From a virus: a stretch of 64,000 nucleotides of DNA. Below are positions 159 through 42,282 of the stretch, one piece after another. The notes below the pieces were generated by a model. That model made no database searches. It saw only the letters and a program-made list of their open reading frames with translations, and was not told the DNA's origin. Position numbers and translations under genes: made by a program. Positions within the stretch are counted from its first letter, which is position 1. Each line of letters opens with the position of its first letter. The stretch covers positions 1 through 64,000 of the IMG/VR virus record IMGVR_UViG_3300035564_000075. One strand, 5' to 3'.

Positions 159-235
159 CATAGTTTCTTGCATCTATAAAATGCAAGTGGTGGACTCTCC
201 CATGAGCATCAAATTTATGCCCAATTTGGTGTCTT

Positions 236-574
236 ATGTACCAATGTGATTGGTGTGGAGAATTCTTTGATCGTAGAAGGCATGGAAAGAAATCTGTATT
301 CGTTTTTTGTTCAAGAGTATGCAAGGAAAAAGCCCAGTCCATAGAAGGTGGAGACAAGTTCTCTTCCATGCGACCTCATCATTATGGAAATGGGAATTAT
401 CAATACAGACGAAGGGCATTTAGACATTATGGTGCAAAGTGCAATAGATGTGGATATTCCGAAAATGTGAAAGCCTTGCAGGTGCATCACAAAGATGGAA
501 ATCATCAGAACGGTCACATTGAAAATCTAGAAGTGCTTTGTGCTAATTGTCACGCAATTGAAACATGGGCCTAA
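236..574 (+). CDS. HNH endonuclease
   Basis: CxxC pairs and LQVHHKDGN...NLEVLCANCH HNH motif. Confidence 0.9.
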   Translation: MYQCDWCGEFFDRRRHGKKSVFVFCSRVCKEKAQSIEGGDKFSSMRPHHYGNGNYQYRRRAFRHYGAKCNRCGYSENVKALQVHHKDGNHQNGHIENLEVLCANCHAIETWA

Positions 575-639
575 GTTGTTGGTGGGTGGCATAATGCTCC
601 TGCAAAGCGTAGGATAGGGTTCAACTCCCTATAGGTCCA
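567..639 (+). tRNA. tRNA-Ala(TGC)
   Basis: acceptor gggccta/taggtcc with G3.U70 Ala identity pair; loop ccTGCaa; overlaps HNH stop. Confidence 0.8.
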
Positions 640-644
640 CCTAT

Positions 645-718
645 GCGGTTCTGTCCATTAGGGACAAGCAATCTTCTCTTGCGGGAAGAGTCTGGTTGAA
701 CACCAGAGAGCCGCACCA
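645..718 (+). tRNA. degenerate tRNA-like gene (TTC-centred loop, encoded CCA)
   Basis: acceptor gcggttc/gagccgc + A-CCA; T arm tctgg-ttgaaca-ccaga; atypical all-pyrimidine loop tcTTCtc. Confidence 0.55.
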
Positions 719-789
719 GCGGGTATGATATATTGGCAGTGTCGTACTCCTCCAAAGTACTGAAAAGGGTTCGATTCCCTTTACCCGCA
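719..789 (+). tRNA. tRNA-Gly(TCC)
   Basis: gcgggta/tacccgc; gtact-ccTCCaa-agtac; C33. Confidence 0.9.
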
Positions 790-794
790 CCTAT

Positions 795-865
795 GGCCGC
801 TAGTCCGACTGGCTAGGAGATCCTCCGCAAAAGGATCGTGATCGGTTCGAATCCGATAGTGGCCT
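795..865 (+). tRNA. tRNA-Cys(GCA)
   Basis: atcct-ccGCAaa-aggat; U73 discriminator; C33. Confidence 0.88.
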
Positions 866-967
866 CTTGAGCTAGGTTTCACTTCCTTTCCCTAGCTCAA
901 TTCGACCTCCTTTCTAAAAGTGGATGGGGTGGTTACATTGCCCTCAGTGTTTGGCCCCATCCACCAT

Positions 968-11018: not shown

Positions 11019-11309
11019 ATGACCAGAACTCTACTATCTAAGAACAAAGACATAACACCAGAGGACAGCCGTGAAGTTGATAATGATGGAATGGTCAAAC
11101 TAATGCGTGCACGTGGCTTTGTGCAGGCTGCTATCGAAGCAGACAACATGCGCTTGATCTACATCTTCCCAAGAAAGGAAACTCAGCCATTGCTGGATGA
11201 GATACTTGCAAATAAGCCAATTATGATCGAATGGCAGAAGTATCGTGATGCAGAGGAAGAGTGGAAGACAACCCTATCCATTCTGAAGGAAATGCGTGGC
11301 AGGAAGTAA
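11019..11309 (+). CDS. hypothetical protein upstream of terminase
   Basis: GAGG RBS; overlaps terminase start. Confidence 0.65.
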   Translation: MTRTLLSKNKDITPEDSREVDNDGMVKLMRARGFVQAAIEADNMRLIYIFPRKETQPLLDEILANKPIMIEWQKYRDAEEEWKTTLSILKEMRGRK

Positions 11310-12996
11310 GATCTATGTGATGACGCCTGCCGAAATAGAGATATTGAAAGCAGGTGCATCCGATCCAACCATCATACTTGATTACTTCTCTCGTCGGCCA
11401 GGGCAAGACCATGGCTGGCGCTTTGACTACAACTTTACCGAAGAAGGTAAGTGGCAGAAGGAGATGTGTCAAGCATCCCAGACCTTCATCGTCTGTATTG
11501 CCGGTATTGCTACTGGCAAAACGGTCGGTGTTGGTATGGCCGCTGTTACCCATGCCATTCTCACTCCAGATTTCAAGTTCCTGAATGTGGCACGTGAAGC
11601 ATGGCAGTCACAACTGATGTACAACGCCATCCTGGAACATGCCGCAGGCACATTGCTTGAGAAACTGATCGTTGCCTCTCCTAGAAGGCCCTATCCCATG
11701 ATTGTCATTGAGTATATTGTCAATGGCATTCATATCAGATCTACTTTGGAGTTCATGTCCATAGGAGAGAAAGAAGATGCTGCAAATATATTTTCATGGC
11801 GTGGTGACTGGATCAATATTGATGAAGCTGGCCGACTTGACGACCTTGGTACGATTGTTGCGAACCTTTCAACACGTGGAACTGGTGCTACACCAGGGGG
11901 AAGGTCATATCTGGGTAGGATCTCGCTTACCACGAACCCATGGGACAATCCAGACCTATGGATTCTCTTCGACATGGCAGCGGCTGATCCGGAAAATTCG
12001 CTTGCGCTTAACATTGATACGTCTTCTAATAAGAATACTACTCAGAAACAGATCGACCAAATCATAAAGATCAACCGCATGGTGCTTGGCTCTGGAGATG
12101 TCAACAGATTCCTAACAGGAAAGCGTCCAGAGGGCAAAGGTACTTACTTCCCGAAGAATGTAGTGGATTCTTGTACATCCAGAATACTATCTACTCCAAT
12201 TGCCAATGGCATGAATGAAGGGACCCCTGAATATGAACTTCAGATCATGGGACAGTTGGGTGCATACTACTTCAAGACCCCAAGACAGAATGATAGGTTG
12301 TATTTCCTATTAGGAGATCCTGGTACTGGTGCTCCTCCAGCGCGTAATGCATTTGTAGTACAAGTCTGGGATGTAACTGATTCTGGTGAAGGCAAACCTG
12401 CATTGCTGGTGGCACAGCACTGGGGCAATGGTGGTGGACAGATAGAACCATTTGTAGAGCAGGTGATTGATTGGATAAAGTATTACAAGCCCATCTTCGC
12501 TGGTGTAGATTCTACTGGTCCACAGAAGAACACTGCTGAAATTGTTTCTCTGGATAGGATCTATGGCAAGGGTTATTCGGTAAGTGCGCTAACCCCCATG
12601 GACTTCTCCGGAGGCAAGCGTATTTCTTATTTGGGTTCTTTGCGTATAATACTAGAAGCAGGGCTAATGCTATGGCCTAGTATATGCACAGGAATCGGGA
12701 GTCAATTAAAAAACTATGATCCAGTCGTGGATAGGAATCCAAACTCAAAACTTCCGCAGGATCTTGTCGCAACTATGGCAATGGCTGCGCGTGCGATTCA
12801 TGGTCACTACGGCATCCTTGGTAAGGAAGGAAGCGATAATGACGCAGGACAAGGCACTGAGATTGTCAACCCTCGCAGATTTGATCGAAGCGAAGGTACA
12901 ACTTGGTCCGGTCGTTCCCAGAGAGACAATGCGGGACGCTCGGAGTATGACCCGAGAGCGGCGTCTGAGGAGATAGAAAGACGCATCAGATCCTAA
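11296..12996 (+). CDS. terL: terminase large subunit
   Basis: Walker A AGIATGKT, Walker B INIDEAG, TTNP coupling motif, RNase H-like GDPG..D; precedes portal. Confidence 0.88.
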   Translation: MAGSKIYVMTPAEIEILKAGASDPTIILDYFSRRPGQDHGWRFDYNFTEEGKWQKEMCQASQTFIVCIAGIATGKTVGVGMAAVTHAILTPDFKFLNVAREAWQSQLMYNAILEHAAGTLLEKLIVASPRRPYPMIVIEYIVNGIHIRSTLEFMSIGEKEDAANIFSWRGDWINIDEAGRLDDLGTIVANLSTRGTGATPGGRSYLGRISLTTNPWDNPDLWILFDMAAADPENSLALNIDTSSNKNTTQKQIDQIIKINRMVLGSGDVNRFLTGKRPEGKGTYFPKNVVDSCTSRILSTPIANGMNEGTPEYELQIMGQLGAYYFKTPRQNDRLYFLLGDPGTGAPPARNAFVVQVWDVTDSGEGKPALLVAQHWGNGGGQIEPFVEQVIDWIKYYKPIFAGVDSTGPQKNTAEIVSLDRIYGKGYSVSALTPMDFSGGKRISYLGSLRIILEAGLMLWPSICTGIGSQLKNYDPVVDRNPNSKLPQDLVATMAMAARAIHGHYGILGKEGSDNDAGQGTEIVNPRRFDRSEGTTWSGRSQRDNAGRSEYDPRAASEEIERRIRS

Positions 12997-13110: not shown

Positions 13111-14865
13111 ATGTTCAATTCGCTTGGAAACACCGTTGATAGTTCTCTAAAAGTAGTTGTTGACATCATTTCTCCGTTTTCGCTGTCCAACCTGCCGAAC
13201 TTTCCCTATATTAGGTACATGGCGCAGTTGGATGCCTATCGAGAACTGGAGTCATGGTATCTTGGCACAATTCTGAATGTTGAAGTCCTGGACAAGGCTT
13301 CTGGCAAGAAGTTCGATCGTTATCCCCTAAAGATAAATCCTATTAGAAATACGTGTGAACTTCATGCAACCACGCTGATGGGTAAGCCAGCTAGTAGTAT
13401 TCAAGATGGTGGCGCACCGATCAGTTTTGTGTGCCAGCCCAACACTCCAGATGAACAGAAGGCCAGGATAGAGGCAGCACTCAAGCAAGTATGGATTGAT
13501 AACCAAGGTTCCGCCCTATTCGCATCCAACGCACTCATATCACAGTATCTTGGCGGTTGTGTATTTGAGGCAATGTGGTTGCCAGAGGATCAGAGAATCA
13601 GGATCACCAATCCCAACCCTAAGGAGTTCATTGGAATTCCCGATGGTGCTGATTACTGGCATTTGCGTGAGGCATGGGTAGTAAAGGAACTGAACCGTAT
13701 TGACCTTATTCAGTATGGTTTCGATCCAGACTTGAAGGACAACAGATGGCATTATATTGAGCACTGGACCCCTGAAGATTATGGCGCATCCATAAATGCA
13801 AAGCCACTTCAGGTAGGTGGTGAGCTAACTCAGGGAGACAATCCTTTCAAGCTGGTACCGTTTGTTTATATTCCACATATCAGAAACTGGTCATTTTATG
13901 GCGATGCCGTAATTACAGATTCTGTGCGTGGCTTGATCCGTGAGCTCAACTTGCGTTGGGCAGACATTGGTGATGCTGTATCTGAAGATGCACATGGTTA
14001 TATCTTCATTCGTAACGTGCGTCAGCAGATCAAACTGGAGAACGTTGGTGATGGTAGACCGCTGTACAACCTGGGAAGCACTACTGGCATTGGTAGCAAT
14101 GAAGCGAATCCAGAGATGATAGCGGTAAAGCCAACCTTTGCATCTGATGTGATGATCAAACTTGGCGATAAGCTGTATGAACTGTATCGCCACGAAGTAC
14201 ATCACCCTGCAGTTGCAGATGGTCAAGATGAAGGATCTCAGCGCTCTGCACAGACTATCTCCACTAGGATGAGTCCTTTGACTGACCACATTGAGATGGA
14301 GCGTATGTTCTGGACAGCAGGACTACAGCGCTTCTCACACATCTTGCTTGTTATGATGGAAGAGAAGGGACTGTATGGAATCAAGAAAGGCGATTCTAAC
14401 ATTACAGTCAGCCTACAGTGGCAACCAATGCTTGGCAAGGATCGTACACAGCTTGTAGCTGAAGTTGTACAGCGTGCCGGTGTCAATCTCGGTTCTATGG
14501 AACTTCTACTCAAGATTCTTGGTGATGTTGAGAATCCTGAAGAGGAAGTTGAGAAGATCATGGAAGAGATGCAGAGGATGAATGCCATCAACATGCCTTT
14601 CCAGCAACCTGGAGAGGGTGACGACAATGGCGACAATTCGGATGACAAAAGTGGCAAAGGTGGTAAACCATCCAAGGCCATTCAGCCAAAGACGCCACGC
14701 AACTTCAAGAAGTTAGCTCCCAAAGCAAAGCCAGGAGAGCAAACAACCGGATCAGGAGAACCAGACCAGATGAAACCAGCCCATGTGCAAGACACAACGG
14801 GCATGGGGGGCGGTGGATATGGCCTAGTTGGTACTGATATGGGTCCTGGGCAAACAGGAGTATAA
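13111..14865 (+). CDS. portal protein
   Basis: position after terL; NPFKLVPFVYIP segment typical of SPP1-like portals; disordered C-tail. Confidence 0.8.
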   Translation: MFNSLGNTVDSSLKVVVDIISPFSLSNLPNFPYIRYMAQLDAYRELESWYLGTILNVEVLDKASGKKFDRYPLKINPIRNTCELHATTLMGKPASSIQDGGAPISFVCQPNTPDEQKARIEAALKQVWIDNQGSALFASNALISQYLGGCVFEAMWLPEDQRIRITNPNPKEFIGIPDGADYWHLREAWVVKELNRIDLIQYGFDPDLKDNRWHYIEHWTPEDYGASINAKPLQVGGELTQGDNPFKLVPFVYIPHIRNWSFYGDAVITDSVRGLIRELNLRWADIGDAVSEDAHGYIFIRNVRQQIKLENVGDGRPLYNLGSTTGIGSNEANPEMIAVKPTFASDVMIKLGDKLYELYRHEVHHPAVADGQDEGSQRSAQTISTRMSPLTDHIEMERMFWTAGLQRFSHILLVMMEEKGLYGIKKGDSNITVSLQWQPMLGKDRTQLVAEVVQRAGVNLGSMELLLKILGDVENPEEEVEKIMEEMQRMNAINMPFQQPGEGDDNGDNSDDKSGKGGKPSKAIQPKTPRNFKKLAPKAKPGEQTTGSGEPDQMKPAHVQDTTGMGGGGYGLVGTDMGPGQTGV

Positions 14866-18552: not shown

Positions 18553-19647
18553 ATGGCCGTTACTGCTCAAGCAGGTATCATTGGTTTTGGTCCACAGGCT
18601 GCAAAAGGTTCACCTGCCCTTTCCATCTATCGTCACCGCGCTACTATGGTTGACATTGATGTTGCAGACGATGTGCGCGAAGGCCCACCAGAAGTTGGTG
18701 GACTGGCTGTGCCTACATTCCCTTATAAGGGTGGTCCCGTTGTGGCGGGAGGCTTTACCATCCAACCCCGCCTGGAAGATACTCTAGGATGGTTGCTATA
18801 CGGTATCATGGGTGCTACTAGCACTACCCCTGATGCAGAAAGTGGCGCTTATCTAAACTCATTCAAACTTGCAACCGATTCTGGTTATGTACCGTGGATG
18901 ACAATCCGCAAGTACGTTCCTCAGAATAACGGCGATCCCGAGACTGATATGGGACAGCAATTCAACGACTGCAAGCTAGTTGGCATGACTATGACTCTGC
19001 CGAATGATGGCCCTATCTCTTCTCGTGTCGATGCAATTGGTCGTACCTTTGATCTAGTTCCTTATCCGTTTAGCCTAACATCTGGTCCTAGTGGATCTCC
19101 TGGTGCTGTAGATGGCCCATGGGAATGGGCTAATACAATGGAACCATGGCACTCTATTCCAGTTGGTGTTCAGACTGGTGGTTTCATTAAGATCGGCGGT
19201 GACACTCTTCCAGTAGTTGCCGCACAGGTTGGTTTCCAGAACGTGCCTCTTGACCTACGTCAGGAGCGTGTGTATGGCGACCCATTCCTTGAGGATGTTA
19301 CTGTCGTTCAGCGTCGTTTGACCTTCGACCTCACTGTAAAGTATACCAACCCAGAACTGTACAAGTTGGTTCTGACTGGTACCAAGACAGGCACTGAATG
19401 GAGTGGACAACCACACACTGGCGCTCTGGATATTATGGCTATCTCAGCTAGCAAGATGACTGGCCTACTCAACCCATGGAGTCTGGAGATTACGAGCGAT
19501 GAAGTTATGATGACGCAGGTGGGTGGTATCACACTTGCTGGTAATCAGGCTATCTTGCTTCGTTTCTCTGGCGTTGCTCTTGAAGCAACCAACTATGCTA
19601 CGTTTATCTTGAAGAATAAGGTAAATGGGTATACTTGGCCTGCATAA
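18553..19647 (+). CDS. major tail tube protein
   Basis: beta-rich 364 aa; AGGAGG RBS; followed by hairpin and chaperone genes. Confidence 0.75.
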   Translation: MAVTAQAGIIGFGPQAAKGSPALSIYRHRATMVDIDVADDVREGPPEVGGLAVPTFPYKGGPVVAGGFTIQPRLEDTLGWLLYGIMGATSTTPDAESGAYLNSFKLATDSGYVPWMTIRKYVPQNNGDPETDMGQQFNDCKLVGMTMTLPNDGPISSRVDAIGRTFDLVPYPFSLTSGPSGSPGAVDGPWEWANTMEPWHSIPVGVQTGGFIKIGGDTLPVVAAQVGFQNVPLDLRQERVYGDPFLEDVTVVQRRLTFDLTVKYTNPELYKLVLTGTKTGTEWSGQPHTGALDIMAISASKMTGLLNPWSLEITSDEVMMTQVGGITLAGNQAILLRFSGVALEATNYATFILKNKVNGYTWPA

Positions 19648-19679: not shown

Positions 19680-19704
19680 ACAATTCCTAATAGGAGAACA
19701 TAAC

Positions 19705-20136
19705 ATGTCTTTCAAACTATCCACACCCCTTGTTACAGAATTTTCCCTTGCCGAAGTTGACAAGAAGATGGGACTGGAGGAATCTCCGGACCCAACCATG
19801 ATCACCATCAGGCAGGCTGCAACGGGAGAGAACGAGGAAAGGAACAACCTATTTTCCCGTTTTCAAAGAGAGTACACTCCTGATACAGTAAAAGTAACGC
19901 AGGACATCAGCTTCGATGCCGTTAGAAGGAAAGAGGTTTTCTTGACTCTGGCAGCATGCAATATTATGGATGTTGATGGCAGGCCCCTATTTGTATTCAA
20001 GGACGGTCGTCTGCAAGATGAGAAATTGTTTACTAAGGCTTGGTCAAAACTGCCCCCTCTGTATGCAGAAGCTATTCACGAAAAAGTACTCGAAGTGAAT
20101 GTAATGTGGAAGGCAGATGTGGGGGAAGGCTCCTAA
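19705..20136 (+). CDS. tail assembly chaperone (G)
   Basis: between tube and tape measure; slippery GGGGGAA at 20121-20127. Confidence 0.75.
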   Translation: MSFKLSTPLVTEFSLAEVDKKMGLEESPDPTMITIRQAATGENEERNNLFSRFQREYTPDTVKVTQDISFDAVRRKEVFLTLAACNIMDVDGRPLFVFKDGRLQDEKLFTKAWSKLPPLYAEAIHEKVLEVNVMWKADVGEGS

Positions 20137-20420
20137 TAGAGAAATTAGACAAATTGAGAACTGCGCTTCAGAACTACTTTGGCATGCTGAATGAGATCAA
20201 GAATAAACTCAAGCCAGAGACAGTCTACGAGAAGCCCGATGTTCTTGAGATTATAGAAATTTGTAGAGACATGGGTATACCTAGGGTGGACGCAGATTAC
20301 GAGCACCAGCCATATATCTGGACGCTCGAATTCCGCACAGCTATCCAGGAAGAGGCGCTATGGAAGAACCTGAATGCCATGGCTGCACAAAGTGGAGCGT
20401 CAACCAATGCCTCCGTATAA
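20121..20420 (+). CDS. tail assembly chaperone -1 frameshift extension (GT)
   Basis: open -1 frame (ORF 20040..20420) continuing from the slippery site. Confidence 0.7.
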   Translation, partial: GGRLLIEKLDKLRTALQNYFGMLNEIKNKLKPETVYEKPDVLEIIEICRDMGIPRVDADYEHQPYIWTLEFRTAIQEEALWKNLNAMAAQSGASTNASV

Positions 20421-23400
20421 GATTACTGATCTTGCAGGGCTGCTATCTGGCCCAAGTTATGGCCTACGTGTTTCGAAGAGTGAGCAAGAAGATGGTACAA
20501 CCCGTATCACTGTTTGGCAACCTAATAGGCCAGCAAAAAAGCTAACGTTAGATGTTCGCTCTTCCGAAGGGGGTGCATTCGGAGGAGTTTTTGAGATACT
20601 CAATAAGAGTAAGCGCACCGCCTATGTAGAAGCCCCATTACTTCAGGCAGAAGTAAGTGAAGGAGAAGAGACTAAGTTTGCCGGTTCTAGCTCTATGCAG
20701 ATGCTTGCACAGAGAATTTGGACATCCTTCGAGCGCGCCTCAGGACAAGTTGGTGCCACTCCACATTCTGTATTCTGGAGTTCCGTAGTAAGGGGAAACG
20801 AGGAAGTTCAGCCTGCTACTGCACTTGGTTGGCATGCCAATGAGTTGGCACAGAACATCACACGTGGTCAGATACGCTTCAATGTCAATGCAATGGGCAA
20901 ACCTCTATATCCTAGTGATGTAGAGCAAGTCCAGAGAGACCTGATGTCTCAAATCAGGTATGGCAAGAATCAGATTATGGGTCCTGGCAACCAGCATGAT
21001 CAGGGCGTTGGTGCAACCTTTGGTGAACTGGGACGTGGTGGATATGTGCAGAAGGGCGGGTTCCTAATTCCTATCACACAGATAACCAGAACTACTGCAG
21101 AGGGAACTGAATGGTTCCTACCAGGAACTGCAGAAAGTGCCGCAAAGTCTCTTCGTAGAATTGGTACATTGCCTCCAGAAGCACTTCCTTATACTAAGGG
21201 AGTGGGTCCAAATAACGTCTATCAGCAAATGCAAGCAACCCCTGCAACCGGACAGGGAGCAGGCTATGCGCTATTGAATATGATCCATCCTGGTGAAACT
21301 CAGGCACGTACTGCGCCTGTAGGCAACCTTTGGGTATCTGGTGTTAGTGGTATCCCTGGTGGTGGACTAGAGCCTTCTAATGCATGGAGACCATCTGCAT
21401 GGGGAAACACCACGGTTGAGGATCTCGATCTTCCTATTAGGAATATTGGAGAGGCCACTGCTGAAAACTTCCCGTTCAAGTTCCGCAATGTAGTAGGAAA
21501 GAACTATGAACCTGGGGAAGGTTCTCCTATCGTTGGTACATACAATGTTGGCGGAAGTGAAAGGAACCTAACTCTACGTCCAGTAGAGAGTGCTCCACTA
21601 TCTCCTTTGTCACAAGTTGTGCTTGTTCCATCATGGAAGAATCCAGTAACTGGTGAATTCCTTGCAACCAAGAAGAGGGGTGCGGTAGCAGTATCTGATG
21701 CAGAGGTACTGGCTGTATCTCAAAGATCTGGTTTGCCAGCACAGAGAGTAGAGGGTTATACCTCTCTGGCGTTGTCTGTTACCAGTCTATACAGAACTGC
21801 ACAGAAAACTGGTGGTACTATCAAGGCACTTGGCGTTCCTACTGGCATGGAACAGTATGTCCATGTAGGTGGACAGAAGGTACCGATCGATTTGGTTACT
21901 GGTGAACTGAAGTCATCTCTTGCCATCACGCAGGACTTTATGGCTTCTCGTTCTCGTTCTCAGGTACTGATGATGCTTGAGGATTACACCAAGAGAACCA
22001 GTGTTTCCGGTGGTCAAGAATTGGTAGAGTACTACAAGAAAGAGTTTATGTCTGGTAAGAGACCTGCTACTATGGAGGAACTTGCCTCTCAACTTAGCAT
22101 TTATGGCGAAGGACAGACTGAAGAGATCAGCAGACTGCAGAGATGGAAGTCATCTCTGACTGACATGAATACTGTCTTCAACATGAGCGAACTAAGCAAG
22201 GAAGAGTTGAGGATTCATGGTACAACCAATGCATCTAATCTTTCTACCTACATAGACCAAAGAATTTCTACTGTTCGTGACTCTGCATTCTCTGGTAATG
22301 GTATGCAACTTGGTAGTGAGATCTTCAAGAATACAGTTCTTGCAGAGAGTGATGCAGAGAGAGCTATGAAGCGCTATGGCGGCTTCTTGACACCAGAGGG
22401 TAACGAGATAGTCCATGGTGCCATGCATCCAGAGTCTATCAAGTGGGCAATCCAGGCTGCAATGGCAACTGGAATGACACAATCACAGGCAACAAAAGAT
22501 GTCAAGAGAAGGTTCACGTTTCAAGATCCTTCTGGCAATCCTATAACACTTCAGCAAGCTATCAAGCTTGGCGAGAGTGGTAAACTTCCTATTGCCTTTG
22601 AGCATCCAGAAAGAAGAAGTGTAGTTCTGATGGGACAGCCTCTTCCAAGAATGATGGAATGGGCTTCAAGGCAGACAAGAATTGGTTATGAGACTGGTAC
22701 ATATCTGTCTTCTATGTTTCCAAAATTCATGTCAGGTATTGGTGCGAACACACGTGAATCTCACAAAATGAGAGGCATGGAAGGACCCGAGCGTGAAGTA
22801 GATGCTTATGTAAAGTGGTCACTCACTCTTGCAAAGCAGAATGAGCAGTATCCTGATATTACTAAGCTAGGAAAGGGAAGGGAATATACAGGAAAGGAAG
22901 AGACTGCTGCGGCTATGACCGTTGCAGAAGACTTGCTTGTAAAATCTGCTTCAGATCTTGCCGAAACTAGAAACAATCCCGATGCAACTCCAGAGATGAT
23001 CAATCAAATGGAGGATGCATATCAATATCGCAAGTCCAACTTCATGGAAATAAGACAGAAGCTGGATATGCCGCCTGAAATGCCGCTTATGCCAGAGAAG
23101 TATCAGGAAGTAAGCGAATCCAATATGAGTAATATTGGTTCCTGGCTATCTTCCCCAGAGGGACAGCAGGCAAGTGACGAAACCAAGCTAGACTTCATTC
23201 GCTCTACTATTGGAGAGGGAGAGGGACCCCTATTCTATGGTCATATCAAGGATGGCAAACTCGTTTCTGGCCCTGGACATCTAATTCCACGCCCTGAACT
23301 TATCAAGGAACTGCAGTACAACGACAAGATCACTGGAGAGTCAATTGGTAACATCTCTGCTCTCTATACTGGAATCTTTTCTGGTAAGTCTGGACCCGAG

Positions 23401-26400
23401 AGACTATTCAACATCCTAAAGGATCGTCTAGGCGCAAAGAGCGAGGCTTACAAGAATGCATGGGGCTTCAAGACTCCATCTGGTTGGGGTGGTAGATTTG
23501 GAAACCTAGAGGCTCTTGCACCAGATGAAATCTATCTGCCTCCAAGTGAGCGCAAGAGAATGCTTCGTCAGATGGGATTCAGGGGACAGAAGCTATCCAA
23601 GGCCATGCTGCAACTTGAGAAGATGGGTGATGTACAGGGAATCGGATTCCGTATTCCTGTAGGTTCACGCGGCCAGCAGATGATGGCAATGAGACTTGTT
23701 ACAGAAAGGACTCTGCGCGAGAGACTTGGCAGTGCTGTAAATCGTGGTGCGTTACTTGGACAATTGAAGCAGACTACTGGTATGTCCTTTGTCAGCAAGC
23801 AGTTCGCTGCCGTTGGTAAGGGTGACTTCGATGCAGACTTTATGATGTCTTTGTTCGGTTTGGCTAGGGACAAGGATGATAATCTCGTCAAGACCGATAC
23901 CACCGAACTGGGTGCAATTCAGATAAAGACCAGTGAGGATGCTGTAGGGCTTCTTCGTAAGATGGGATTGAATGTAGAGGAAGACATTCCAAAGGAGTCT
24001 CTGGATACTATCAAGGAAGTTCTTGATAAACCAGGATTCCACTCTGCACAAGAGGTTATGGAAGCCTTCTTCAAGCTAGGCGTTTCAGAGACTGGTCGTG
24101 GCACTACCTACAACATCCAGCGTATCTTCACGCCTTTCATGCAGATGGCAGGCTTCAAGACAAAGCAAGTTGATGCAGTTACCTCTGCAATGCAGAAGAT
24201 CTACAGTGCCGCATTGGACAACTGGAATGTAAAGAACAAGCGTGAGCTATTGGGCGACACGCTTACTTCCGCTATCTCTACTGCAGAGATCCGTATGGGA
24301 GATAGTGGTCCATATCTGCACCTGGGAACGCGTATTCCTAAGAAGGGTTCTCCTGGAAACATTGGTTACAACTTTGCGCCCGAGCAACTTGTTCAGGGTG
24401 GCGTAAAGAATCTCATGCTGGAACTTGCACGCAGAGCCAACACTCCTCTTGAGGTTGTTGGAAAGAATGGCGAAATTACCAAGGAATATCAGTGGACTGC
24501 AGAATCTGTAGCACAGCTATTCACTGGTCCTGGCAAGAGCTCTAAGGCGCTAAAGGCAAAACTAGAAGCTGCTGGACTTGGCAACTTCTATGGTCCTCTT
24601 GCTGAAGAGATCAACTCTAAGTTCGAGGGTGCAAAAGATCACGAAGATACCATAAGAATCAGCAATGAATTTATGATGACACCGATCGTGGGCTCTACTC
24701 TTACTTCTGCATTGGTACGTGCTAATGGAGATCCAGATGCAGAGTATGCTGCTGCTGAATTCTTCCGTAAGTCAGGTTACTCTGGCAAGCTGATCAAGGC
24801 TTCTGCAACTCTTGCTCGTATTCAATTGGGCAAGGCAGATGTCTCTGCCGATGAGATCTTCGATGCTCTAAAGGTAATGCCAAAGGGTGTTGATAGAGAG
24901 TCACTTGTTCAGGTTGCCATTCAGCGTGGTATTAGAGTGCCAAAGTATCAGGGCAAGGAAGGCGCTCCAGATCCTAAGAGACAGGTGGAAGCTGCATTTG
25001 AGAGAGCAGTTCCACAACAGGGTGTCCTAGCCACTGGTGCTGCTGCCAGAAGAGGCAGGGGCGGAATGAGTCCCGTAGAGCGTGCAGTAGTTGAGAGTGC
25101 TACTCAAATTGCTCCTGGTGTTGGTAGAAGGGCGGGACTTATCCCAGATCCTGATGCCATTCTGGAGAGGAATATAGACGATGTATCAATGGGAGAGGCT
25201 GACAGACTATTGGGTGCTGCTGTATCAAGTGCTCCTAGAGTTCTGTCTGCTTTGGGCGGCAAAGATACTGGACTATATAGCAGAATCCAGGCCGCTGTAT
25301 CTGCTGCTACAGGTGTTGGCGTTGGTGATCTTGGTTCAAGATTCGGCAATCAACTAGCCGAGCAGATTGGTGGTGCTTCTTCTACTCCCGAGAATCTTGA
25401 GAAGTTCGTGCGCGCATTGGGCGCAGGTGACTTCGACAAGATCAAGGAAGTTCAGAAGGGTGTATCTGCATCCAGAATTGGTGCCTATGTTGCTCCTAGA
25501 GCATCAGCTAAGATGAACATGGCTGCTGTAACTGCACTGAACGCCAGTGGTCAGGCTGCACAGATTGCAGGCATTGGTGATATGAATGCAGTTGAAAGAG
25601 AAGTGGGTAAGCAAGCGCAGGAAGTAACAATATCCCCTGAAGCGCAGAAGGCTGCAAAGCTAGAGACACTGTACAATAACTGGATTGCCATGACTGATAA
25701 GCATGGCAAGATTATGGAGAAGTACCAACCCGCCTTTGATAAGATGGTACATGATTTTGGAGAAGTTGGTAAAGACTTCGAAAAAATGAGCAAGGGCGAA
25801 AAGAGGGGCGTGGTTGGTGGCTTCGCTGCACAGCGTGAGGAAGATGCCAAGTCTGAACAAGCTGCTGCAAGACAGGCTGCTCAGGGAAGAATCGCTGCTG
25901 GTGGCGGAACTGGTACACCAGAAGATATAGCCCTTGCTGCTAGTGGTGGTGACGAGGGCGGTAGTACTCCTGGAAGAAGAATCGCTTCAACCTTCCGCAA
26001 GCTATTAGGCGGTTGGGGCCTAATGTACATGAAGGATATTGCTGGCTACGTGACTGGTGGTGTTGGTTGGGGACAGGGCGAAGCAGAGCAGTATCGTGGT
26101 GCACAGGCTGGCGTGATTGGCAAGCAAGTTGGAATGACTTCTCCATACCAGTCATACGCACAACGTACTGCCACCATGATGGGTCTTGCGGGAAGTGATG
26201 TAAACGCAAAGCAATATCTGGATAGAATACAGGCACAGAACCAAGCAATTCAGCTTGGCTTTGGTGGTCTATCTGCTGGTGTGGCTGGTGCGGCTGGTTA
26301 CTCATTCATTGCGCAAAGTGGTGCACTTGGAGCAGGTCTTGCATCAGAAGCAAGTATTGGTGCAGTTGCTCCTATACTTGGATTGGCAATCGGTGCTGGT

Positions 26401-29013
26401 GCAGTTGCTGCCAATGTTATTGGTAGGGCATCCGATACACAAGGTACTGGTTATGGTCTTTCTAAGGCAACTTCCTTTGGTAGCGCACTTGCTAACATAG
26501 GATCGATTGCCGCAAACAAGATACAGGACAAAACTCAAAAGGCTCAAAGTAATCAATCAGCAATTGATTACACAATAGCAAGAGACATTGTTACCAGTGG
26601 TGGAAGGGTGGCGCAGTTTGCTGGTGGTTCACCAGATGCTGTAAAGGCTGCTTCTCTTGCTACAATATTCTCTGAGCAATATGGACTTGATGCACAGAGT
26701 GCTGCACAGGTGGCCGCATTCTATGTTCAAAATCCTAATATGACGATGAACGCTACTTCTGTAAAAGCACTTGCTGCTAATTATAGCTATGGCGGAAATA
26801 TGGAGGCCATATCAGGTGGTGCCGTTGTAAATTCCGGTTTCAGTGGTAAGCAAGCACAAGATATAGCGCAGAGGGGTATGCAGACACTGGCCGGTGGACA
26901 AAAGATATTCAACGGTGTAACATCCTATGATGTTGCAACGGGCAAGCCTATATCTGGTGACAGGTATTCAACGCCAACCGTGTATAAGCAACTAGAGCAA
27001 GAGGCAATTGCTGGTGGACAGAAGTTCCTTGGTCAGGTTCCTGGTGGTCAGTATCTGCAATATGGTGCACAGGGAGCTACACCAGCCAATGGAATGAATA
27101 TCGTTGCACAGAACCAATATGCACAACAAGCATTTGGTCTAACTCCATATCAGCAACAGGCTATGATGACATCTGGTACTTTTACTGATCAGTTGAGAAA
27201 CTATGGCTGGAAGGGTTCACAGCTTGACGTAAAAGATATGATGGCTGCAGGACAGATCACACAGGCGCAGTCTTATAGGTATGCTCTACAGGCACAGTAT
27301 GGATCACAACTTCTTGGTGGTATGGCTTCTGGAAATCCACTAACATGGTCATCCGTAGCCAGGGCCTCTGGACAGGCTGGCATACCATCTTATGGTGGCT
27401 TGCAGACTACATGGGGACAGAATGTATCAAGTCAGTATCTTGGATTCACTGACATCAATCCTACAACGGGTGCCCCTACTGGACAGGCATGGGGAACCAG
27501 TTCTCTTGCCATGTATGGTACTCCTGCTCCAGCAGTAGCGCAACAGATTTGGAATAGGTTGCCACAACCAAACGAAAGAGGGATTGGTGTAAATGCTGGA
27601 CAAGGATTTACTTTAGGACAGGCACAAGCTGCTTATGGTAAGTATGGTGGTGGCGCAATCAACGCCATGACGAACGGCTTCAATGTCAATGGTACTACTT
27701 ACTATGGACAGCAAGGATTGCAGGGTTTCCAGAATCAGCAATCTTATGACTTCTCTATGGCTTCTGCTGGCTTGGCAATGACAGGCGCAAAGGCAAGTTT
27801 GGCATTTGCAACTGGTATTGGTATCAACAAGTACAACAATATCAATCCTCAGACCGGACAGTACTTCAACATAGGCGCACAGAGCTATGGCTTCGATGCT
27901 GGTAAGTATGGATCATACCAATCAGTAGGTGGTGGTATGTGGGGCATTGAGGATGCACAGCGCTATCTTGGATATGCACAGCAACAGGCTAGCTTTGGCT
28001 TCCAGCAGAAAGGAATGAATTTGCAGGCTACGCAGTTTGGACAGACGATGGGATTGCAGTGGCAAGGCATGCAACTAAGTAGACAACAGGGTACAGAGGA
28101 ATATCAGTTCCAGTCTGGTCTAGCTGCACATCAGTTTGGTTTTGGACAGACGATGTTCAGAGAGCAGGCAAGATTTACTTCTGGCCGTGAGCGTCGCCTG
28201 GAAGAGATGCAGAACAAGGAAAATGTTACCGTCTATGGAATGGAAAAGAATCAGAGAGACAAGGAATTCGCATTCCAGAAAGAGAGATGGAAGCTAGAAG
28301 AGCAACAGCACAAGTTGCAGATCCAGCAGTTTGCAGAGACTAAGAAACTACAGCAAGAAGAGTTGGATGCCAACCGCAAGTTCTGGGAAGAAGGCAAGAA
28401 GCTCTCCGAGGCGGCTGTACAACTACAGCGTGCTGAGTTCATTGAGAACAACAAACTACAGCAACAGTCTGCTGCACTTCAGGCTGCACAAGCACAAGCA
28501 ACCAAGCAGATGGCCGATGTTATGATTCCATACACCAAGTATAGTGGTGATGTAAGTGGTATGCTGGACAGCATGAACGCAACTACCCTTCCAGACATGA
28601 TAGCCTATTTGACAAATGTAAACTCTGGAATGATAACCTTCATCTCAAATCTAGCTACAGTTCAGGCATTACTAGGTGGTGGCTGGCAAGGACCTCTTCC
28701 TGGAGAAGGACAGCATGCTACTGGTGGTTCTCTTGGCCCTGGTGTTTCTTCCGTTGGTGAGGCTGGTTGGGAGTTCGCCGTTGGTAATCAGATTATCCCA
28801 CATGCAACATCCGTAGGACTATATAATGCTGGTATGCGTCCTGGCATGAGTTTTGCACAGGGCACCAATAAGATCAACGAGTATATGGATAGGGCAATGC
28901 TTCCATTCAGTGGAGGCGGTGGTTCTAAGCCGATGCAAGTCAATGTATACGTTGGTAATGAACTGTTGCAGTCCTTTATTATTGACGCAGTTAGCAAGGA
29001 TCTAAACAACTAA
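20407..29013 (+). CDS. tape measure protein with N-terminal two-barrel RNA polymerase domain (putative virion RNAP)
   Basis: tape-measure position and C-terminal HATGG..VGEAGWE motif; N-half has QKTGGTIK, PIDLV, RIG, GGR, RIP, GDFDAD in RNAP order; start 20407 has GGAG RBS. Confidence 0.8.
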   Translation: MPPYKITDLAGLLSGPSYGLRVSKSEQEDGTTRITVWQPNRPAKKLTLDVRSSEGGAFGGVFEILNKSKRTAYVEAPLLQAEVSEGEETKFAGSSSMQMLAQRIWTSFERASGQVGATPHSVFWSSVVRGNEEVQPATALGWHANELAQNITRGQIRFNVNAMGKPLYPSDVEQVQRDLMSQIRYGKNQIMGPGNQHDQGVGATFGELGRGGYVQKGGFLIPITQITRTTAEGTEWFLPGTAESAAKSLRRIGTLPPEALPYTKGVGPNNVYQQMQATPATGQGAGYALLNMIHPGETQARTAPVGNLWVSGVSGIPGGGLEPSNAWRPSAWGNTTVEDLDLPIRNIGEATAENFPFKFRNVVGKNYEPGEGSPIVGTYNVGGSERNLTLRPVESAPLSPLSQVVLVPSWKNPVTGEFLATKKRGAVAVSDAEVLAVSQRSGLPAQRVEGYTSLALSVTSLYRTAQKTGGTIKALGVPTGMEQYVHVGGQKVPIDLVTGELKSSLAITQDFMASRSRSQVLMMLEDYTKRTSVSGGQELVEYYKKEFMSGKRPATMEELASQLSIYGEGQTEEISRLQRWKSSLTDMNTVFNMSELSKEELRIHGTTNASNLSTYIDQRISTVRDSAFSGNGMQLGSEIFKNTVLAESDAERAMKRYGGFLTPEGNEIVHGAMHPESIKWAIQAAMATGMTQSQATKDVKRRFTFQDPSGNPITLQQAIKLGESGKLPIAFEHPERRSVVLMGQPLPRMMEWASRQTRIGYETGTYLSSMFPKFMSGIGANTRESHKMRGMEGPEREVDAYVKWSLTLAKQNEQYPDITKLGKGREYTGKEETAAAMTVAEDLLVKSASDLAETRNNPDATPEMINQMEDAYQYRKSNFMEIRQKLDMPPEMPLMPEKYQEVSESNMSNIGSWLSSPEGQQASDETKLDFIRSTIGEGEGPLFYGHIKDGKLVSGPGHLIPRPELIKELQYNDKITGESIGNISALYTGIFSGKSGPERLFNILKDRLGAKSEAYKNAWGFKTPSGWGGRFGNLEALAPDEIYLPPSERKRMLRQMGFRGQKLSKAMLQLEKMGDVQGIGFRIPVGSRGQQMMAMRLVTERTLRERLGSAVNRGALLGQLKQTTGMSFVSKQFAAVGKGDFDADFMMSLFGLARDKDDNLVKTDTTELGAIQIKTSEDAVGLLRKMGLNVEEDIPKESLDTIKEVLDKPGFHSAQEVMEAFFKLGVSETGRGTTYNIQRIFTPFMQMAGFKTKQVDAVTSAMQKIYSAALDNWNVKNKRELLGDTLTSAISTAEIRMGDSGPYLHLGTRIPKKGSPGNIGYNFAPEQLVQGGVKNLMLELARRANTPLEVVGKNGEITKEYQWTAESVAQLFTGPGKSSKALKAKLEAAGLGNFYGPLAEEINSKFEGAKDHEDTIRISNEFMMTPIVGSTLTSALVRANGDPDAEYAAAEFFRKSGYSGKLIKASATLARIQLGKADVSADEIFDALKVMPKGVDRESLVQVAIQRGIRVPKYQGKEGAPDPKRQVEAAFERAVPQQGVLATGAAARRGRGGMSPVERAVVESATQIAPGVGRRAGLIPDPDAILERNIDDVSMGEADRLLGAAVSSAPRVLSALGGKDTGLYSRIQAAVSAATGVGVGDLGSRFGNQLAEQIGGASSTPENLEKFVRALGAGDFDKIKEVQKGVSASRIGAYVAPRASAKMNMAAVTALNASGQAAQIAGIGDMNAVEREVGKQAQEVTISPEAQKAAKLETLYNNWIAMTDKHGKIMEKYQPAFDKMVHDFGEVGKDFEKMSKGEKRGVVGGFAAQREEDAKSEQAAARQAAQGRIAAGGGTGTPEDIALAASGGDEGGSTPGRRIASTFRKLLGGWGLMYMKDIAGYVTGGVGWGQGEAEQYRGAQAGVIGKQVGMTSPYQSYAQRTATMMGLAGSDVNAKQYLDRIQAQNQAIQLGFGGLSAGVAGAAGYSFIAQSGALGAGLASEASIGAVAPILGLAIGAGAVAANVIGRASDTQGTGYGLSKATSFGSALANIGSIAANKIQDKTQKAQSNQSAIDYTIARDIVTSGGRVAQFAGGSPDAVKAASLATIFSEQYGLDAQSAAQVAAFYVQNPNMTMNATSVKALAANYSYGGNMEAISGGAVVNSGFSGKQAQDIAQRGMQTLAGGQKIFNGVTSYDVATGKPISGDRYSTPTVYKQLEQEAIAGGQKFLGQVPGGQYLQYGAQGATPANGMNIVAQNQYAQQAFGLTPYQQQAMMTSGTFTDQLRNYGWKGSQLDVKDMMAAGQITQAQSYRYALQAQYGSQLLGGMASGNPLTWSSVARASGQAGIPSYGGLQTTWGQNVSSQYLGFTDINPTTGAPTGQAWGTSSLAMYGTPAPAVAQQIWNRLPQPNERGIGVNAGQGFTLGQAQAAYGKYGGGAINAMTNGFNVNGTTYYGQQGLQGFQNQQSYDFSMASAGLAMTGAKASLAFATGIGINKYNNINPQTGQYFNIGAQSYGFDAGKYGSYQSVGGGMWGIEDAQRYLGYAQQQASFGFQQKGMNLQATQFGQTMGLQWQGMQLSRQQGTEEYQFQSGLAAHQFGFGQTMFREQARFTSGRERRLEEMQNKENVTVYGMEKNQRDKEFAFQKERWKLEEQQHKLQIQQFAETKKLQQEELDANRKFWEEGKKLSEAAVQLQRAEFIENNKLQQQSAALQAAQAQATKQMADVMIPYTKYSGDVSGMLDSMNATTLPDMIAYLTNVNSGMITFISNLATVQALLGGGWQGPLPGEGQHATGGSLGPGVSSVGEAGWEFAVGNQIIPHATSVGLYNAGMRPGMSFAQGTNKINEYMDRAMLPFSGGGGSKPMQVNVYVGNELLQSFIIDAVSKDLNN

Positions 29014-41982: not shown

Positions 41983-42024
41983 AAGAGTCTCCTAATAGGA
42001 ATGTTGGAACATCGCGATACTATA

Positions 42025-42282
42025 TTATACTACCTTTCTAGCAGGTGTGTCAAAGTGCTCCATGCACTGGACGCAGATTGCAGCAATCTTCCGGATATTC
42101 TCCAGTGCTTCCGTGTCGCTATTGGTATTGGTCCAACGCTCAACGGCTCGGTTGAAGTAAGATTGAATCATAATCATGTACTCACCAACGACATGATTCC
42201 TATAATCTGTGCGAGAGGGCGGTAAATGATCCTGGTAGTCTCTCTCTCCATCAATCAGTTTATAAACCTCAGTTCGTTCCAT
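42025..42282 (-). CDS. MazG-like NTP pyrophosphohydrolase-fold protein
   Basis: ERDYQD...IRKIAAICV helical pattern. Confidence 0.55.
   Translation of the reverse strand: MERTEVYKLIDGERDYQDHLPPSRTDYRNHVVGEYMIMIQSYFNRAVERWTNTNSDTEALENIRKIAAICVQCMEHFDTPARKVV

Follow-up and report, generated by a model that had tools for sequence, protein, structure and literature searches.

A giant tape-measure gene of a siphovirus very probably carries a highly diverged RNA polymerase core in its first half

What does a tape-measure gene encode in a first half that looks nothing like a tape measure? The window analyzed here is the first 64 kb of the complete, 84,630-bp metagenomic IMG/VR virus record IMGVR_UViG_3300035564_000075, which has 123-bp direct terminal repeats, and the gene in question is the giant open reading frame (ORF) in its tape-measure slot (Table 1; residue numbers throughout count from ATG 20374, the start of the longest ORF). 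A preliminary description of this DNA proposed that the N-terminal half of the protein contains a divergent polymerase core with a DFDAD motif, and the proposal is supported by the invariance of the Asp triad and by two AlphaFold models. We conclude that the first half very probably carries a highly diverged relative of the cellular RNA polymerase (RNAP) core, and that the fusion of a two-barrel polymerase module to a tape measure is well supported. The full interpretation, in which a tape measure with a diverged single-chain two-barrel RNAP is delivered in the virion and transcribes the first phage genes, is in our judgment probable.

A HMMER search with residues 300–1499 against 1.84 billion representative proteins identified 14 relatives (E from 1e-69 to 6e-05), mostly 2700–3500 residues long, with matches in two blocks (residues about 303–598 and about 1004–1400). 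Three matches were short; these relatives are fragments or splits, since their cluster mates are 2930, 3983 and 3754 residues long. All relatives that bear a name are called 'hypothetical protein', and their long contigs measure 82–89 kb. A wider scan of IMG/VR and metagenome contigs with the back-translated tape-measure motif GG[FW]G[LM]MYM yielded 24 ORFs of at least 500 residues holding the motif, including that of L002 (a contig of the relative P0003). One DxDxD lies 765–1675 residues upstream of the motif in 18 of these 24 ORFs; the other six are cut N-terminally by the locus end and are hence uninformative on this point. About 30 giant ORFs were recovered in total from IMG/VR and metagenome contigs, all hypothetical or unnamed, and the polymerase-type module and the tape measure form one ORF in all full-length relatives. 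Other searches were empty: the protein had no match among 50,697 phage records with either megablast or tblastn, a language-model atlas queried with residues 1–1550 and a related-loci search with the N-terminal fragment gave nothing, and a word-indexed protein search with the protein or a 15-row profile returned only the query itself, a result on which we do not rely.

The family divides into a closer and a distant group. A hidden Markov model (HMM) of the N-terminal 1450 residues of the closer subfamily matches only 8 of the 24 giant ORFs. The alignment of the two groups by hhalign (20 rows against 8) nevertheless has a probability of 99.7% (E 1.6e-25, residues 960–1308), and the β'-like region is therefore homologous across the whole family. 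For the β-like region, the L-INS-i alignment suggests that homology also extends to the distant group. In the relative P0004, an insertion of about 300 residues (residues about 640–960) follows the β-like barrel; by eye only, its D...E-x-K...Q-x-x-x-Y pattern is reminiscent of PD-(D/E)xK nucleases of the RecB/Cas4 type.

We aligned the N-terminal halves of the family with L-INS-i in 28 rows, leaving out L002 and L008 (which are identical to P0003 and P0008), L014 (from the record of L042), L010, L018 and L021 (truncated at the N-terminus), and six loci whose sequence breaks off ahead of the region. The preliminary description had expected homologs to keep all three Asp residues of DFDAD, and they do: D1151, D1153 and D1155 are invariant (28/28) at a mean column identity of 16–23%, as are P1095 and D1282. 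The GFRIP motif (residues 1091–1095, Arg codon 23650), also singled out there, retains R1093 in 27/28 rows along with the invariant proline. Y1277 (26/28) and G1243 (25/28) are nearly as constant, and the G-G-R-[YF] (R1041) and L-x-P-x-E blocks are mostly retained. The full-length alignment of 15 rows has just eight invariant columns (G988, G1068, P1095, D1151, D1153, D1155, D1282 and G1309). Catalytic-type residues occupy the positions with the highest conservation in the protein. DFDAD is the sole DxDxD in its 2879 residues, and by our own estimate about 0.4 would be expected by chance; since a single occurrence is not unusual, the weight of the motif comes from its invariance.

The β-like half of the proposal needs adjustment. 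Every motif string of the preliminary description lies where it was placed: AQKTGGTIKALG at residues 476–487 (Lys codons 21805 and 21823), GQKVPIDLV at 500–508, RQTRIGYE at 766–773, LAPDEIYLP at 1048–1056, and the C-terminal ATGG and VGEAG at 2782 and 2794. The two lysines of AQKTGGTIKALG had been compared with those of GDK..GRHGNKG; K484 (codon 21823) is present in all 26 rows that cover it, but K478 (codon 21805) varies. The second invariant lysine is instead K513 (TGELK, codon 21910), which had not been named, and which like K484 is found in 26/26 covering rows and in 19/19 within the closer group. The equation of RQTRIGYE with GQRFGEME does not hold, as the string is not conserved; close to it, conservation is limited to E762 (25/27).

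The same pattern bears on the possibility that the domain derives from a polymerase yet is catalytically dead, and that the tape measure retains it as a plug with a structural or DNA-binding role. Activity is so far predicted only, and the divergence in sequence from every known polymerase is extreme, both of which suit a plug. Such domains lose their catalytic residues, however, and here the three Asp residues, R1093, P1095, K484 and K513 are the most conserved. We regard a dead domain as quite improbable.

Two AlphaFold models were examined, one of residues 300–1499 from a 15-row alignment (model 1) and one of residues 400–1340 from a different, 18-row alignment that included the distant group (model 2). 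Both were compared with 350,542 PDB chains using Foldseek, and our statements cover the best 50 matches for each. In keeping with the fold that had been proposed, all 50 were RNAP β' chains or their homologs for either model, among them plastid RpoC1 and the non-virion polymerases of phiKZ and AR9 (best E 7.7e-4 and 7.9e-4; probabilities mostly 0.8–0.99). The template modeling (TM) scores were low, about 0.1, as is expected for one domain within 1000-residue chains. With VIA-align on the candidates from Foldseek, model-1 residues 732–890 (residues 1031–1189 of the protein) superpose on Escherichia coli (E. coli) β' 344–495, and the matches include RNA polymerase II (Pol II; 8s52_A, root-mean-square deviation [rmsd] of 2.8 over 106 residues), African swine fever virus (ASFV) and Pol IV. 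The superposition on β' starts and ends at independently conserved motifs. Wider segments superpose more loosely, model-1 539..890 with E. coli β' 262..493 (rmsd about 9–10 Å) and model-2 436..802 with E. coli β' 255..499 (rmsd about 10 Å). Model 1 also superposes across both barrels on QDE-1 (model residues 183/186..888).

Searches of other kinds gave a more mixed picture. The best 50 matches of a VIA search, which is independent of Foldseek, were dominated by one helical hairpin and contained RNAP rows in 8/50 cases for model 1 and 0/50 for model 2; the hairpin of residues 835–901 alone matches many unrelated hairpins. In a viral structure library, the top three matches are phage proteins without a stated function, one of them labeled 'Minor tail protein' (from an uncultured siphovirus, aligned over 747 columns); next come proteins of crAss-like phages, RNAP subunits of giant viruses, LEF-9 and ASFV RPB1.

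Could there be no polymerase at all, with motifs that arose by chance and a fold that is an artefact of shallow alignments, the first half being really a tape-measure extension of an unusual kind or an ejected enzyme of some other type? The two models, whose alignments differ, point to the same family, which filled 50/50 Foldseek rows twice from 350,542 chains, and the boundaries of the superposition coincide with motifs whose conservation was established independently. We consider such an absence highly improbable. The models predict a β'-type barrel with an invariant DxDxD loop, a mark of two-barrel RNAPs. We infer a β-like barrel from K484 and K513, the β-rich fold, and the QDE-1 superposition in one of the two models; K513 may be the counterpart of E. 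coli β R1106. The helices that follow the β'-like barrel are a candidate bridge-helix/trigger-loop region, and the predicted local distance difference test (pLDDT) score is low there and no superposition was specific to them.

The arrangement of the motifs agrees with that of cellular β'. Their order is the same, and the distance from G1031 to D1151 is 120 residues, as compared with 116 from G344 to D460 in E. coli β' (reference motifs GKRVD 344, YSGRS 349, NRAP 424 and NADFDGD 458). GFKTPSGWGGRF (residues 1031–1042, from 23464), which had been equated with β' GKRVDYSGRS, is where the superposition begins (model residue 732, residue 1031 of the protein, against β' 344/345). A helical hairpin lies upstream, at the place of the clamp helices. 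In the β-like part, the spacing K484-16-GQKVPIDLV resembles K1073-18-GTPVDIV of E. coli β. Unlike cellular RNAP, the protein is a single chain without a Pfam RNAP domain, and the spacing of its lysines differs in the β-like part; counterparts of the alpha and omega subunits and of sigma-binding regions did not emerge.

Several results, of the models, the searches and the promoters, weigh against the interpretation of this protein as a virion-delivered RNAP. The confidence of both models is only moderate (mean pLDDT 63.3 and predicted TM score [pTM] 0.46 for model 1; mean pLDDT 63.5 and pTM 0.42 for model 2), with pLDDT below 50 in the catalytic loop of model 2 (and also in model-1 residues 1–44, residues 300–343 of the protein), and the superposition of QDE-1 over both barrels appears among the listed rows of model 1 only. 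No Pfam RNAP domain was detected in the whole protein (E up to 1), in 18 family members or in the genome; PHROGs has no match to the protein, and neither phmmer nor the family profile matched PDB sequences, apart from low-complexity matches of the profile. Alignment by hhalign to residues 1–1200 of gp96, the tape-measure-fused polymerase of Thermus phage P23-45, had a probability of 0.2%; alignment to E. coli β' was confined to a 14-column GDxDxD stretch (E 0.094), and alignment to E. coli β gave nothing. The interpretation does not account for the passage through the tail channel of a module that has about 1350 residues and a large connector. Finally, a perfect sigma-70 consensus promoter (TTGACA-N16–18-TATAAT) is present at 42024–42053 on the minus strand and another beyond the window, on the plus strand at genome 84403–84430 (L043 19773–19800), and no recurrent motif that could serve as the promoter of a phage polymerase was found, only a palindrome made of a stop codon and a Shine-Dalgarno sequence at gene junctions.

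That palindrome, the 11-mer TCCTAATAGGA (a 5-bp inverted repeat around one base), occurs with near variants in about 16 copies in 84.6 kb, compared with about 0.04 expected by chance (our own estimate). Many copies lie at gene junctions, where TAA/TAG serves as the stop of the upstream gene and AGGA as the Shine-Dalgarno sequence of the following one; some are inside ORFs, including one within the tape-measure gene. The promoter at genome 84403–84430 immediately precedes the right terminal repeat and is directed outward, off the end of the genome. It could therefore reach the tRNA array at the left end only if the DNA is circular or concatemeric. Since perfect sigma-70 promoters are present, the host polymerase is used for at least part of the transcription programme.

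The promoters also leave room for an active two-barrel nucleotidyl transferase with another job, such as replication priming, QDE-1-like RNA-dependent synthesis or a transcription-driven genome-entry motor. They suggest that the host polymerase could initiate unaided; the evidence from the fold cannot tell the type of template or product, and the best superpositions include that on QDE-1, which is an RNA/DNA-dependent polymerase. However, DNA-dependent β' chains rank first in Foldseek with both models, and the sole characterized tape-measure-fused example transcribes pre-early genes, according to its report (PMC10770324). We think such a different job unlikely and favor the transcription of the first phage genes.

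That example is P23-45 gp96, a system shared by phages P74-26, G20c and TSP4 (PDB 8H2M, 8H2N). As described in the same source (PMC10770324), residues 327–1124 of gp96 are an active polymerase with a DFDGD motif, fused to the tape measure; it transcribes the pre-early genes, after which a second, non-virion polymerase, gp64, takes over. The gp96 polymerase is flat and clamp-less, and its connector is short and disordered (residues 613–679). Like gp96, the protein studied here combines an N-terminal polymerase module with a giant tape measure, belongs to a siphovirus with a genome of about 84 kb, has a DxDxD motif (DFDAD, compared with DFDGD in gp96), and is invisible to ordinary sequence searches; the role that we propose for it by analogy, injected transcription of the first genes, would be the same. 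In contrast, a sequence relationship is undetectable, as the hhalign result and PDB sequence and profile searches show (the latter were empty although 8h2m and 8h2n were present), and the predicted connector here is about 510 residues long, helical, and equipped with a clamp-like hairpin. The concept is that of gp96, yet by sequence comparison the protein is not a member of the gp96 family. In the literature, judged for the citing papers by titles and the first lines of abstracts, a tape-measure-fused virion polymerase is reported only for P23-45 and its close Thermus relatives (PMC10770324).

Unlike P23-45 with its gp64, the complete 84,630-bp genome was found to contain no second large polymerase gene. 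Outside the tail genes, it has no other ORF longer than 584 residues and, on the minus strand, none longer than 460; among its ORFs, DxDxD is absent outside the tail genes, the adaptor and one acidic ORF of 121 residues. PF00623 has no match in the genome, with a control that was positive in 14/14 genomes; a small or very diverged polymerase may yet be encoded.

The protein also differs from QDE-1 of Neurospora, gp66 of phi14:2 and YonO of SPbeta, to which it has no sequence similarity; gp66 and YonO are further set apart by their description. The gp66 polymerase of phi14:2, a crAss-like phage, is carried in the capsid and YonO of the Bacillus prophage SPbeta is a non-virion polymerase; neither is known to be fused to a tape measure. 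The structures 8H2M, 8H2N, gp66 (6VR4) and YonO lie outside the best 50 PDB matches of every list, which does not exclude a similarity to them.

The assignment of the remainder of the protein to a tape measure agrees with the preliminary description, and is borne out by the gene order from terminase to tube and by the overlapping ORFs in the chaperone position (Table 1). The usual marks of a tape measure are present, namely its position (after the tube and a frameshift-type chaperone), length, helical build and hydrophobic segments, and in the syntenic contig L002 the gene order is as in this phage. By position, composition and language-model neighbors, the C-terminal approximately 1000 residues look like an ordinary tape measure; the nearest clusters in the language-model search are tape measures (scores 0.89–0.90), which we treat as a lead only. 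Curated tape-measure families (Pfam, including TMP_2 and PhageMin_Tail, and PHROGs) have no match to the protein. This part contains a conserved GGWGLMYM segment (residue 1879), a hydrophobic stretch (residues 1984–2020), a Gly/Ala/Gln-rich middle, the coiled-coil-like RFTSGRERRLEEMQ region (residue 2600), and the C-terminal ATGG..VGEAG (28717–28767) and IGNE motifs. In the relatives P0003 (L002 about 19700–20150) and P0006, a Hint/intein-like insert precedes the conserved C-terminal tape-measure motif; it begins with CFLAGT or CFVGGT, ends with HN, and is absent from the protein of the window.

ATG 20407, the start favored from the outset, is more plausible than that of the longest ORF, as a GGAG Shine-Dalgarno sequence stands nine bases upstream. 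The chaperone-position ORF and its -1-frame partner have no family match, and no canonical slippery heptamer was found in 19705–20420. The two frames overlap at 20040–20136, and the first frame has, toward its end, a single G-rich run, GGGGGAA (20122–20128), which is not a canonical XXXYYYZ site. Plus-strand genes occupy 0–41.5 kb of the genome (the tRNA array, glycan enzymes, and structural and lysis genes) and minus-strand genes most of 41.6–84.6 kb; long intergenic gaps (100–350 bp) are numerous in the right-hand 7 kb.

Table 1. Coordinates of the tape-measure gene, its predicted domains, neighboring genes and copies of the junction palindrome (window positions unless marked as genome positions).
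Feature	Position	Strand	Remarks
Tape-measure-slot gene	20374/20407..29013	+	single uninterrupted ORF, 2879/2868 aa
N-terminal region, aa 12–408	20407..21597	+	conserved in closer subfamily; mostly outside modeled range
β-rich domain, aa 409–520, candidate β-like double-psi barrel	21598..21933	+	strands predicted; K484 21823–21825, K513 21910–21912
Mostly helical connector between both barrels, aa 521–1030 (about 510 aa)	21934..23463	+	predicted secondary structure, both models
Long helical hairpin in connector, aa 835–901	22876–23076	+	aligns with β' clamp coiled-coil region
Predicted β'-like double-psi barrel, aa 1031–1190	23464..23943	+	G-G-R-F (R1041), LAPDEIYLP, R1093-x-P1095 (23650–23658), G-DFDAD loop (23824–23838)
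Conserved post-barrel helices, aa 1191–1340	23944..24393	+	G-M-G-x-x-Y-N-x-x-R (about aa 1241–1250), Y-Q-x-x-L-D (D1282, 24217–24219)
Ala/Gly-rich linker from polymerase module to tape-measure part, aa 1341–1874	24394..25995	+	composition in 200-aa windows; poorly conserved
Tape-measure part, aa 1875–2879	25996..29013	+	
Terminase large subunit	11296–12996	+	late block
Portal	13111–14865	+	late block
After portal, in order: coiled-coil scaffold-like ORF, 475-aa ORF in capsid position, SU10-type adaptor, 179-aa ORF, tube		+	
Tail tube gene	18553..19647	+	Pfam Phage_tube_2, E 3.9e-08
Chaperone-position ORF (143 aa)	19705–20136	+	
-1-frame ORF (126 aa) overlapping chaperone-position ORF	20040–20420	+	ends 14 nt inside tape-measure gene
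TCCTAATAGGA, plus form	6352, 12991, 19685, 20131, 30264, 39480, 41990, 54168, 55007	+	20131: 9-mer only
TCCTAATAGGA, minus form	12305, 21432	-	
TCCTAATAGGA, beyond window	genome 68364, 75118, 77969, 79197, 81891, 84203		

Together, these features suggest how the protein may work. One polypeptide would have two jobs, with a polymerase core in its N-terminal approximately 1350 residues and a tape measure in its C-terminal approximately 1000. The core would comprise, in order, the β-like barrel with K484 and K513, the connector of about 510 residues with its clamp-like hairpin, the β'-like barrel with G-G-R-F, R-x-P and the putative Mg-binding D1151-x-D1153-x-D1155 loop, and helices at the position of the bridge helix. 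By comparison with gp96, the module would be catalytically active, and the protein would be built into the tail, with the polymerase travelling in the virion joined to the tape measure. At infection, the protein would leave the tail and enter the host before the DNA or together with it, and the polymerase, tethered near the membrane, would then transcribe the first phage genes. The host sigma-70 polymerase would serve at least some other promoters.

The strategy is known from P23-45; what is new here is its presence in a sequence-unrelated, widespread family with a different architecture. Whether the family amounts to a second lineage of tape-measure-fused RNAPs, widespread and separate in its evolution, found in uncultured siphoviruses of about 82–89 kb from many environments, nearer to cellular β/β' than gp96 is (with a clamp-like hairpin and a long connector) and serving as the only polymerase of the phage, is a more tentative matter, and we put it forward as a possibility somewhat short of even odds. 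If it is so, fusions of this kind either originated repeatedly or are ancient. The finding also poses a mechanical question, namely how the tail tube lets out a polymerase module that comprises about 1350 residues and a large connector. Standard annotation misses such polymerases completely, and the compact set of motifs described here (K...K, GGR[YF], RxP, GDxDxD, YNxxR and LD) offers a means of finding more. It may be common for environmental long-tailed phages to inject a polymerase of the cellular type, and, if the separate lineage is real, injection of a membrane-tethered polymerase would be a general way to start, and perhaps to power, genome entry in these phages.

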